In this document: in pieces, positions 36,627 through 36,794 of the stretch
Layout of the letters: every line of letters starts with the position of its first letter
Numbering within the stretch: the first letter of the stretch is position 1
Assembly (NCBI GenBank): GCA_965217585.1
Contig: OZ244561.1
Span: 3,904,001-3,968,000, forward strand
Source: Candidatus Latescibacterota bacterium
GTDB taxonomy: Bacteria; Latescibacterota; UBA2968; UBA8231
Direction of reading: 5' to 3'
DNA length: 64,000 nucleotides
Made by a program: the position numbers and the translations under genes
The notes under the pieces: model-generated
Databases searched by the model: none
Told to the model about the DNA's origin: nothing
Seen by the model: the letters and a program-made list of their open reading frames with translations, nothing else

Positions 36627-36657
36627 GTTTCAATCCACGCCCCCACACGGGGGCGAC
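36627..36657 (-). CRISPR. Solitary type I-C-like CRISPR repeat (no array, no cas genes in window)
   Basis: Minus strand GTCGCCCCCGTGTGGGGGCGTGGATTGAAAC: GTCGC start, 7-bp stem, GTGGATTGAAAC end; AT-rich leader with TTGACA (36723-36728) upstream. Confidence 0.75.
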
Positions 36658-36794
36658 GCAGCCGCGAGAGTTTAGAGTTTATTGTTGCCCTATAAATCTA
36701 GTTACGAGGGGGCGTAAAACAGTGTCAAGGGACGCGTAAAAAATTTTCAGAAAAAGTGCAGTGGGGTTAAATCAGGCGCTGGGAGATCTCGCAA

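Follow-up and report, generated by a model that had tools for sequence, protein, structure and literature searches.

Single CRISPR repeats that lie outside an array are known as solitary repeat units (SRUs). The accessible text of Shmakov et al. (10.1101/2023.03.03.530964) states that standalone repeats arise readily, because repeats are recombinogenic, and that many SRUs look like spurious duplications. According to the available sections of Shu et al. (10.1101/2024.12.27.630466), SRUs located between herA/gajB and cas5c give rise to type I-C CRISPR RNA-like RNAs (crlRNAs), which carry a handle of 11 nt, terminate on the 3' side within the loop of a hairpin, and have a target of 16 bp, flanked by TTC, in a promoter close by. 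CreT toxins, in the part of PMC8501985 that is available, combine a strong Shine-Dalgarno (SD) sequence, an AUG, two consecutive rare codons and a stem-loop. Here we describe a stretch of 64,000 nucleotides from a Candidatus Latescibacterota bacterium (the window), in which one type I-C repeat stands 3 nt upstream of the SD sequence of a small gene.

This solitary repeat resembles the SRUs catalogued in 10.1101/2023.03.03.530964 in being a single CRISPR repeat outside an array. As the accessible text of the catalogue presents them, however, SRUs lie in or next to CRISPR-cas loci of genomes that bear such systems, whereas the solitary repeat has no cognate subtype in its genome and is far from cas genes. 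Unlike the catalogued SRUs, it also sits in the leader of a housekeeping-like small gene, where it is one of several leader forms found across species. Within the collection of papers that our literature search covered, we found no description of a CRISPR repeat that lies in a host gene's 5' untranslated region (UTR) where the genome lacks cas genes; supplementary files, for example those of 10.1101/2023.03.03.530964, may list such cases.

The reading that we favor, and regard as probable with some reservations, is that the element is a fossil I-C repeat that has become fixed in the functional 5' UTR of a small, genus-conserved gene, replacing a native stem-loop. If so, single repeats can outlast a lost CRISPR system and be carried over long periods in functional leaders of ordinary genes, as one of several forms that species have in common. 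Such orphan repeats can be mistaken for guides, decoys or toxin switches.

A solitary I-C repeat in a genome without I-C cas genes

The repeat and the sequences that adjoin it have the following window coordinates.

36627..36657, minus strand: solitary I-C repeat, consisting of the hairpin GCCCCC-GTGT-GGGGGC and then GTGGATTGAAAC (from the sequence, the arrays of relatives and predicted folds)
36658..36672, minus strand: 15 nt, AACTCTCGCGGCTGC, directly 5' of the repeat and present in the repeat-bearing form only (from an alignment of 20 loci)
36618..36623, minus strand: SD sequence AGGAGG, 3 nt 3' of the repeat and 6 nt 5' of the conserved ATG (from the sequence)

The repeat (GTCGCCCCCGTGTGGGGGCGTGGATTGAAAC, 31 nt, read from 36657 to 36627 on the minus strand) is matched once in the window when up to three mismatches are allowed (0 of 100 shuffles), and a scan of the whole genome at the same tolerance again gives one match. 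This genome, G000, is a single contig of 7,323,734 bp that is rated 94.6% complete. The repeat is ~94% identical to the array repeats of four genomes of the same genus (G004, G008, G009 and G022), whose I-C arrays hold 45 to 120 repeats each; in G022, the array is preceded by genes in the order cas3-cas5d-cas8c-cas7-cas4-cas1-cas2. It also has the layout expected of an I-C repeat, a GC hairpin followed by ...ATTGAAAC. Rfam places CRISPR-DR9 on the repeat below threshold (24.7 bits vs a gathering score of 45; E 0.012), and an Rfam search of 35500-37500 at E values up to 10 left the downstream RNA unmatched and otherwise gave chance-level matches.

A first-pass annotation of the window had described one 31-nt I-C repeat with neither a second copy nor accompanying cas genes, and all of this holds. 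An array has at least two repeats with spacers, and one repeat is present here. When a second copy, including a decayed one, was sought in the 167 nt 3' of the repeat, the best local alignment scored 13, a value reached or exceeded by 246 of 500 shuffles. Profile searches of G000 gave no match to Cas5d (PF09704) and none to Cas8c (PF09709), and tblastn with the seven I-C proteins of G022 found nothing but Cas4, Cas1 and Cas2, which belong to the I-G/III-A and III-D loci described below. At its rated completeness of 94.6%, G000 is without I-C cas genes. Therefore, its repeat is neither cut by a cognate Cas5d nor loaded into a cognate I-C Cascade.

The suggested check for an I-C locus elsewhere in the same genome instead yields two systems with other repeats. 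A III-D locus (C1:1958000-1977000) has a 14-repeat array and genes for Cas6, CARF proteins, Cas10d, Cas7/Cas5 III-D fusions, Csx19, Cas1 and Cas2. A composite I-G plus III-A locus (C1:7126000-7153000) has ~100 repeats and encodes Cas7g, Cas5-6g, Cas3g, Cas8g, Cas10, Csm2-4, a CARF-RelE-like protein and a Cas4-Cas1 fusion; past its array, behind an inserted gene, lie two or three extra repeat copies. Both array repeats are 37 nt long and unrelated to the solitary I-C repeat, and the III-D repeat, which ends in ...GGGGATTGAAAC, has only its last 10 nt (GGATTGAAAC) in common with it.

Because Cas6 and III-D effector genes adjoin the III-D array, the resident III-D Cas6 or effector might process or bind the leader through these common 10 nt. 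We consider such cross-use very improbable indeed. The III-D repeat is present in only two of the 31 genomes of the genus, G000 and G001, and G001 has a leader in which a plain hairpin occupies the place of the repeat. Moreover, the remainder of the two repeats is unrelated.

The small gene and its leader forms

The leader belongs to a gene unit that has these further features.

36699..36730, minus strand: conserved promoter block, CCCTTGACACTGTTTTACGCCCCCTCGTAACT, with TTGACA (36728..36723) and a TTACG-N6-CGTAA inverted repeat (from conservation)
36462..36611, minus strand: small open reading frame (ORF) of 49 codons plus stop, MIGVHRFDM...FAPRGRGSVPD (frame open in relatives)
36568..36587, minus strand: hairpin inside the ORF, codons 9-15, ATGCGCGG GACG CCGCGCAT (from the sequence and fold)
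36386..36431, minus strand: intrinsic terminator with a 15-16 bp stem, a 10-nt loop and a 7-U run (from fold and conservation)

The locus is found in 26 of the 31 genomes of the genus. It is complete in 25 and cut by a contig end in G024, and the five other genomes gave no match. The region from promoter to terminator is 75-97% conserved in 25 of the 30 genus genomes other than G000 (DNA search), and the promoter, SD sequence, ORF and terminator are common to 22 loci that form a main group. What differs among the 25 complete loci is the segment directly before the SD sequence, which takes these forms.

Intact repeat, 7 of 25: G000, G003, G006, G011, G012, G013, G022
Decayed repeat, 2 of 25: G009, G043
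19-nt hairpin CGACGCTTTTAAGAGCGCC at the position of the repeat, 13 of 25: G001, G002, G004, G005, G007, G008, G010, G014, G020, G021, G041, G042, G044
Neither form, 3 of 25, all divergent loci: G019, G045, G046

The 19-nt hairpin is unrelated in sequence to the repeat. Repeat form and hairpin form differ by a 46-nt piece (the 15 nt plus the repeat, 36672..36627) that stands in place of the 19 nt, and folds predict a hairpin directly 5' of the SD sequence in both of these main forms. The 15-nt segment holds the second copy of a 7-nt tandem duplication, AAACTCT (36680..36674 and 36673..36667); this 7-mer is single-copy in G043. When a source for these 15 nt was sought among the I-C arrays of G022, G004, G009 and G008, no match turned up at up to three mismatches.

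The leader forms are interspersed on the trees of both flanking genes. G000 pairs in both trees with G001, a genome of the hairpin form (support 94/93 and 100/96), and its ORF region is 97% identical to that of G001 and 89-92% identical to those of other repeat-form genomes. The trees and these identities together imply that the forms have been lost, gained or exchanged by short-tract recombination, independently of species history.

Repeat-form leaders likewise do not track the presence of I-C systems. Cas8c is found in six of the 31 genomes (G004, G008, G009, G019, G022 and G046), or in two of the nine repeat-form genomes vs four of 16 others, a comparison that has one genome per species and includes several fragmented genomes. 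One of the two, G009, carries I-C genes together with a decayed repeat that has a broken hairpin and two changes in the handle. In the other, G022, the solitary-repeat locus is at 4.09 Mb and the I-C system at 5.73 Mb (~1.6 Mb apart).

The first-pass annotation had offered a collapsed array as an alternative. As a statement about origin, this comes nearest to the fossil reading, but none of the 25 further loci of the genus, of which 24 are complete and one is truncated at the end of its contig, has an array at this site. Comparison of relatives thus gives several leader forms instead of the full variable array that had been envisaged. Origin of the repeat form by recombination of a self-derived spacer was also considered and rejected, because the supposed protospacer in the hairpin form is preceded by GCC instead of TTC.

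On the 3' side, the repeat is followed by CAC, AGGAGG (36623..36618), an ATG (36617) and a second ATG (36611). Except for the second ATG, these signals had been noted before, as had the TTGACA upstream of the repeat and the hairpin at 36587..36568, and all are read in the sequence. By contrast, the earlier descriptions of the upstream block as a CRISPR leader and of the downstream segment as a structured RNA are not supported by comparison with relatives. Upstream of the repeat lie the promoter and 5' UTR of the small gene, found in 22 genomes with or without the repeat, and the downstream RNA behaves more like an mRNA. We read the surrounding unit as the mRNA for a genus-restricted small protein, or as a translated leader.

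The promoter block is almost unchanged in the 22 main-group loci, whatever the leader form, and is unlike the true I-C array leaders (...cacaatgtattagcttgcaaca) of G022, G004 and G009. A scan for the sigma-70 consensus did not call it; its promoter role is deduced from conservation and from RNA contigs that begin downstream. Between TTGACA and a CGTAAC motif lies the inverted repeat TTACG-N6-CGTAA, kept in 22 genomes, which might serve as an operator or, going by the extracytoplasmic function (ECF) sigma factor consensus, as an ECF-type -10 element. A common regulon based on CCCTTGACACTGTTT, which the locus shares with the cas5 promoter of G009, was rejected, as this sequence is absent from the cas5 promoters of G022 and G004 and occurs only twice in G000.

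The frame of the small ORF is open in all 25 complete loci at 45-54 codons, with start and stop in common. The conserved start is the second ATG (36611), the in-frame ATG at 36617 not being kept in relatives, and GGAG(G/A)A is kept in most aligned loci. Indels all come in multiples of three: in the main group they measure 3, 12 and 3 nt, and in the divergent group, too, they preserve the frame. Protein-level constraint appears weak: pooled pN/pS is 0.68 vs 1.11 and 0.89 in the two other frames, and variable sites are distributed 27/24/26 over the codon positions. Homologues make up 31 protein clusters, each of which is at least 73% identical and lacks a Pfam domain, and one source annotates its copy as a hypothetical protein of a Gemmatimonadota metagenome-assembled genome. 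A Pfam search with the ORF itself gave no match, and a protein Atlas search gave nothing informative, with no match above 0.77.

The whole transcript folds better than shuffles (z -4.5), and the hairpin at 36587..36568 is present in every leader form, with variants that are not clearly compensatory. In a consensus fold of 22 transcripts, double-sided changes occur in 3 of 51 pairs, each in one to three sequences, and a conserved RNA fold beyond the hairpins was set aside as insufficiently supported. The terminator is kept in all aligned loci. A terminator consensus scan did not call it, which we attribute to its 10-nt loop, since the scan takes loops of 3-8 nt.

Contigs assembled from sponge metatranscriptomes cover much of the unit; they derive from related strains, give neither ends nor strand, and may include DNA carry-over. 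Those of run X17 cover 36445-36682, repeat included, those of run X19 cover 36445-36622, and those of run X18 cover 36487-36627 and then pass into hairpin-form sequence. None bridges the terminator, and the contigs stop just short of 36431..36386. The coverage hints that the unit is transcribed in both leader forms. Parts of the window that RNA does not cover (for example, 36392-36432 and upstream of 36883) are uninformative, and the X18 depths (111.5 vs 23.6 and 3.5) cannot rank genes. The exact 31-nt repeat also occurs in one X18 contig, there in a different setting that is probably an array.

Origin and possible roles of the repeat

In the fossil reading, the gene unit runs on the minus strand from the promoter block (36730..36699) through the leader, the SD sequence and the 49-codon ORF to the terminator (36431..36386). 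The 46-nt piece, made up of 15 foreign nt and the repeat, occupies the place that an unrelated 19-nt stem-loop has in another form, directly 5' of the SD sequence. The role remaining to the repeat would be that of the stem-loop it replaced, namely a 5'-UTR hairpin beside the ribosome-binding site, which would affect mRNA stability or access to the SD sequence. We infer this hairpin role, as well as an origin of the repeat from an array fragment.

Divergence among the seven intact-repeat genomes differs sharply between the two halves of the repeat. Four-fold degenerate sites of the neighboring transporter gene diverge at 0.186, the promoter and leader before the repeat at 0.056, and the 40 nt after the repeat at 0.08. 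The hairpin half diverges at 0.22, which is about the neutral rate, so its exact sequence is free to drift; the stem can still pair in all seven intact copies, aided by homopolymer runs. The last 12 nt (GTGGATTGAAAC, which include the 11-nt Cas5d handle) diverge at 0.04, a conservation of the handle-like 3' end that could reflect proximity to the SD sequence or recognition by a protein.

Further I-C relics are frequent in the genus, where these systems have evidently been lost time and again and have left one or two repeats in place. At the position of the 120-repeat array of G004, G042 has a single I-C repeat. A pair of I-C repeats, spaced by 12-18 nt and with the second ending 0-4 nt upstream of the GTG with which an sdhA-like flavoprotein gene starts, is present in seven of 29 genomes (G009, G013, G014, G020, G021, G041 and G043; loci L053, which is G014:C171, L054, L060 and L062-L064), only one of which has Cas8c. 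At one stem pair of the second of these repeats, G-C, G-U and A-U are found across genomes, which suggests that its hairpin is maintained. The corresponding site of G000 (C1:1561444) is empty of repeats and has an unrelated 41-nt segment instead. G000 does have, after an ABC-permease-like gene, a decayed I-C-like repeat (C1:3060663-3060700, GTCTCTCCTCGTTTCGGCGGGGGAGCGGATTGAAAC) that, over 40 nt, shares 92.5% identity with the decayed repeat at the end of the G008 array and resembles the 37-nt repeat of the G007 and G046 arrays. By its sequence, it is probably the remnant of a lost array. In G004 (L025 10234-10265), a near-complete I-C repeat lies between cas1 and cas2, 12 nt before the cas2 ATG.

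Several observations weigh against a fossil. The last 12 nt of the repeat match the functional UTR in conservation, with a stem pairable in seven of seven copies, and this conservation of the handle fits recognition by a Cas protein as well as proximity to the SD sequence. With one genome per species, the absence of I-C holds for the representatives, and other strains could have it. No relative has an array at the site and no source of the 15 foreign nt turned up, so that the origin is a matter of inference. The 103-nt leader alone folds no better than shuffles (z -0.54). Finally, RNA support consists of the contigs of related strains described above, which show neither strand nor ends and may include DNA carry-over.

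The conserved handle is central to a different proposal, in which the leader responds conditionally to Cas5d. In strains with I-C, Cas5d would cut at the base of the repeat hairpin, so that the mRNA then starts with the 11-nt handle just 5' of the SD sequence, or Cascade bound to the handle would cover the SD sequence and AUG. Expression of the small ORF would thereby report or depend on CRISPR-Cas status, and species without cas genes would keep the site because I-C is often gained and lost. The hairpin and GTGGATTGAAAC are intact in seven genomes, with the handle part being the conserved one, and G022 combines a complete I-C system with the repeat form. The repeats before the sdhA-like GTG and before cas2 of G004 have a comparable position, and the G-C to G-U to A-U series at one sdhA-site stem pair (compared by eye) is of the kind expected for a maintained hairpin. 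Processing of solitary I-C repeats by Cas5c, with an 11-nt handle, is documented in the available sections of 10.1101/2024.12.27.630466. However, Cas8c is no more frequent in repeat-form genomes than in the others, the repeat is decayed in I-C-carrying G009, G000 itself lacks I-C, and the hairpin half evolves at a neutral-like rate. We therefore judge a Cas5d-responsive leader to be unlikely, although it is the minority reading to which we give most room.

A broader version of this proposal is that host genes of the genus are wired to I-C through repeats placed directly before translation starts, those of the small ORF here and, in seven relatives, of the sdhA-like flavoprotein gene. In cells with I-C, such leaders would be cut or coated by Cas5d or Cascade, which would change expression, and the sites would persist in species without cas genes as I-C comes and goes within populations. 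We also think this unlikely, and a little more doubtful. The natural pair of leaders, one with the repeat and one with a plain hairpin, is ready material for testing the response to Cas5d.

The first-pass annotation had also proposed a crRNA-like guide, which we take here as one of the CreR, CreA or crlRNA kind. In this case, the repeat would supply the 5' handle, the next ~35-48 nt would be a pseudo-spacer that ends at the 36587..36568 hairpin, and Cascade would repress a promoter or toxin elsewhere. The succession of repeat and hairpin is indeed like that of I-C crlRNAs, whose 3' ends lie in a hairpin loop according to the accessible text of Shu et al., and genuine CreR-like elements exist in the genus. 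These are found between cas3 and cas5 (G022 L024 4704-4900; G004 L025 4953-5150; G009 L026, minus strand, 6620-6820) and consist of a decayed repeat, CACATGTATTACGTA... and a terminator, after which comes the cas5 promoter. Their pseudo-spacer matches a TTC-flanked CATAT(A/G)TATTAAGTAA in the cas5 promoter at ~12 of 16 positions (by eye), and in sequence each looks like a crRNA-like autoregulator of the Cascade operon.

For the solitary repeat, by contrast, a guide of this type calls for both a cognate Cascade and a partial target flanked by a protospacer-adjacent motif, and neither was found. G000 has no cognate Cascade, and the locus is far from the cas genes even in G022. The recommended search for TTC-flanked partial matches of the pseudo-spacer, at up to four mismatches to its first 18 nt after TTC (mismatch levels that bound the sensitivity of the search), gave none in G000, where 20 shuffled guides gave 0-3 each. 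The sole match in G022 is the locus itself, preceded by AAC. In addition, the 'pseudo-spacer' is the SD sequence and ORF start, which are equally conserved without the repeat, and the transcript continues to a terminator 195 nt further on. A guide is thus very unlikely. Targeting of the small-gene promoter by the CreR pseudo-spacer of relatives was rejected as well: a 9-nt match, TGTATTACG, is confined to the divergent loci, where none of the four seed positions matches and TTG stands in place of TTC (by eye). Elsewhere in the genus, a conserved half-repeat, GGCGCGTGGATTGAAAC, followed by a AAAAAAGCGGAGAG...CTCTCCGC hairpin occurs at one locus common to G002 (L057), G041:C105 (L068) and G014:C117 (L069). 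Cas8c is absent from all three genomes, and the arrangement is that of a crRNA-like small RNA.

Two remaining suggestions, an RNA anti-CRISPR (Racr)-type decoy that titrates Cas proteins and a CreT-type toxin whose SD-AUG-AUA leader sequesters a rare tRNA unless Cascade represses it, are scarcely credible. Racrs are solitary repeat units in the available portion of PMC10651486, and the ORF has AGGAGG, AUG, AUA at codon 2 and a stem-loop seven codons later, which recalls the CreT pattern given in the accessible part of PMC8501985. A Racr would be expected in a mobile-element context. The neighbors are instead ordinary chromosomal genes, for a Mem_trans transporter, a GFO/IDH/MocA oxidoreductase and DUF5916/CBM9 proteins, and neither phage nor plasmid genes are among them; the locus between the Mem_trans and DUF5916/CBM9 genes is conserved and keeps its flanks in 26 of the 31 genomes. 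The host also has no I-C system to inhibit. A CreT-type toxin-antitoxin module would have two consecutive rare codons and a cas-linked antitoxin, neither of which is present. There is a single AUA, found in 20 of 22 loci and replaced by AUC in G009 and ACA in G041, and the 49-codon frame is conserved, unlike a mini-ORF. Furthermore, 13 genomes keep the gene with neither a repeat nor cas.

Neighboring sequence and comparison with known systems

No tRNA or tmRNA genes were found near the locus. Downstream of the terminator, G000 has lost part of the next gene.

36380..36381, minus strand: junction of a G000-specific deletion of ~228 nt (from alignment with relatives)
36203..36295, minus strand: residual 30-codon ORF, MRREIINQGLMYAIISLFVFAMIPLLRFLS, the 3' part of the neighboring gene (from alignment)

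Every relative aligned across 36380/36381 retains a second promoter (GCTTGACAT...) together with the initial ~76 codons of an ORF of ~110 codons, and RNA contigs from four runs continue at 36380 into the segment that the relatives have extra. The 179 nt that remain after the junction are 95-98% identical genus-wide, far above the flanks (relatives L005-L023). They end in a 30-residue hydrophobic tail (MRREIINQGLMY...RFLS), and of this tail, which has its own SD sequence, a paralogous copy at 82-87% identity is found elsewhere in each genome.

Apart from SRUs, the closest described systems are the I-C crlRNAs. As far as the accessible text of 10.1101/2024.12.27.630466 describes them, they and the solitary repeat have in common a repeat of the same subtype with its hairpin, an 11-nt handle segment and a hairpin tens of nt downstream. 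However, I-C crlRNAs lie inside cas operons and are produced as RNAs of 48-57 nt when Cascade is present, whereas the solitary repeat has no Cascade, no target, and an SD sequence and ORF start for a 'spacer'. CreTA/CreR modules, in the available parts of PMC8501985, 10.1101/2023.03.10.532045 and PMC9458426, similarly place an ectopic repeat near a strongly initiating short frame with a stem-loop. Unlike them, the present locus lacks a pair of consecutive rare codons, an antitoxin guide directed at its promoter and any cas linkage, and its gene is free of the repeat in most relatives. Racrs, in the available portion of PMC10651486, are also solitary repeat units that are transcribed. They are encoded by viruses or mobile elements and directed against the cognate system of the host, whereas the solitary repeat is chromosomal, conserved in position and carried by a host without I-C.

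The fossil reading makes a modest point, and the Cas5d-responsive reading, if true, would matter more. A CRISPR nuclease site 5' of a host ribosome-binding site would then be a natural post-transcriptional link from CRISPR-Cas status to host expression. Engineered Cas6/Csy4 cleavage sites in 5' UTRs are used to insulate gene expression, and they have the same layout that a Cas5d-responsive leader would have, with a repeat hairpin directly 5' of the ribosome-binding site. Those sites are synthetic and are supplied with their nuclease, whereas G000 has no nuclease gene. Wiring of host genes to I-C, if it exists, would be the natural equivalent of synthetic Cas6-insulated 5' UTRs in a sponge-associated genus.

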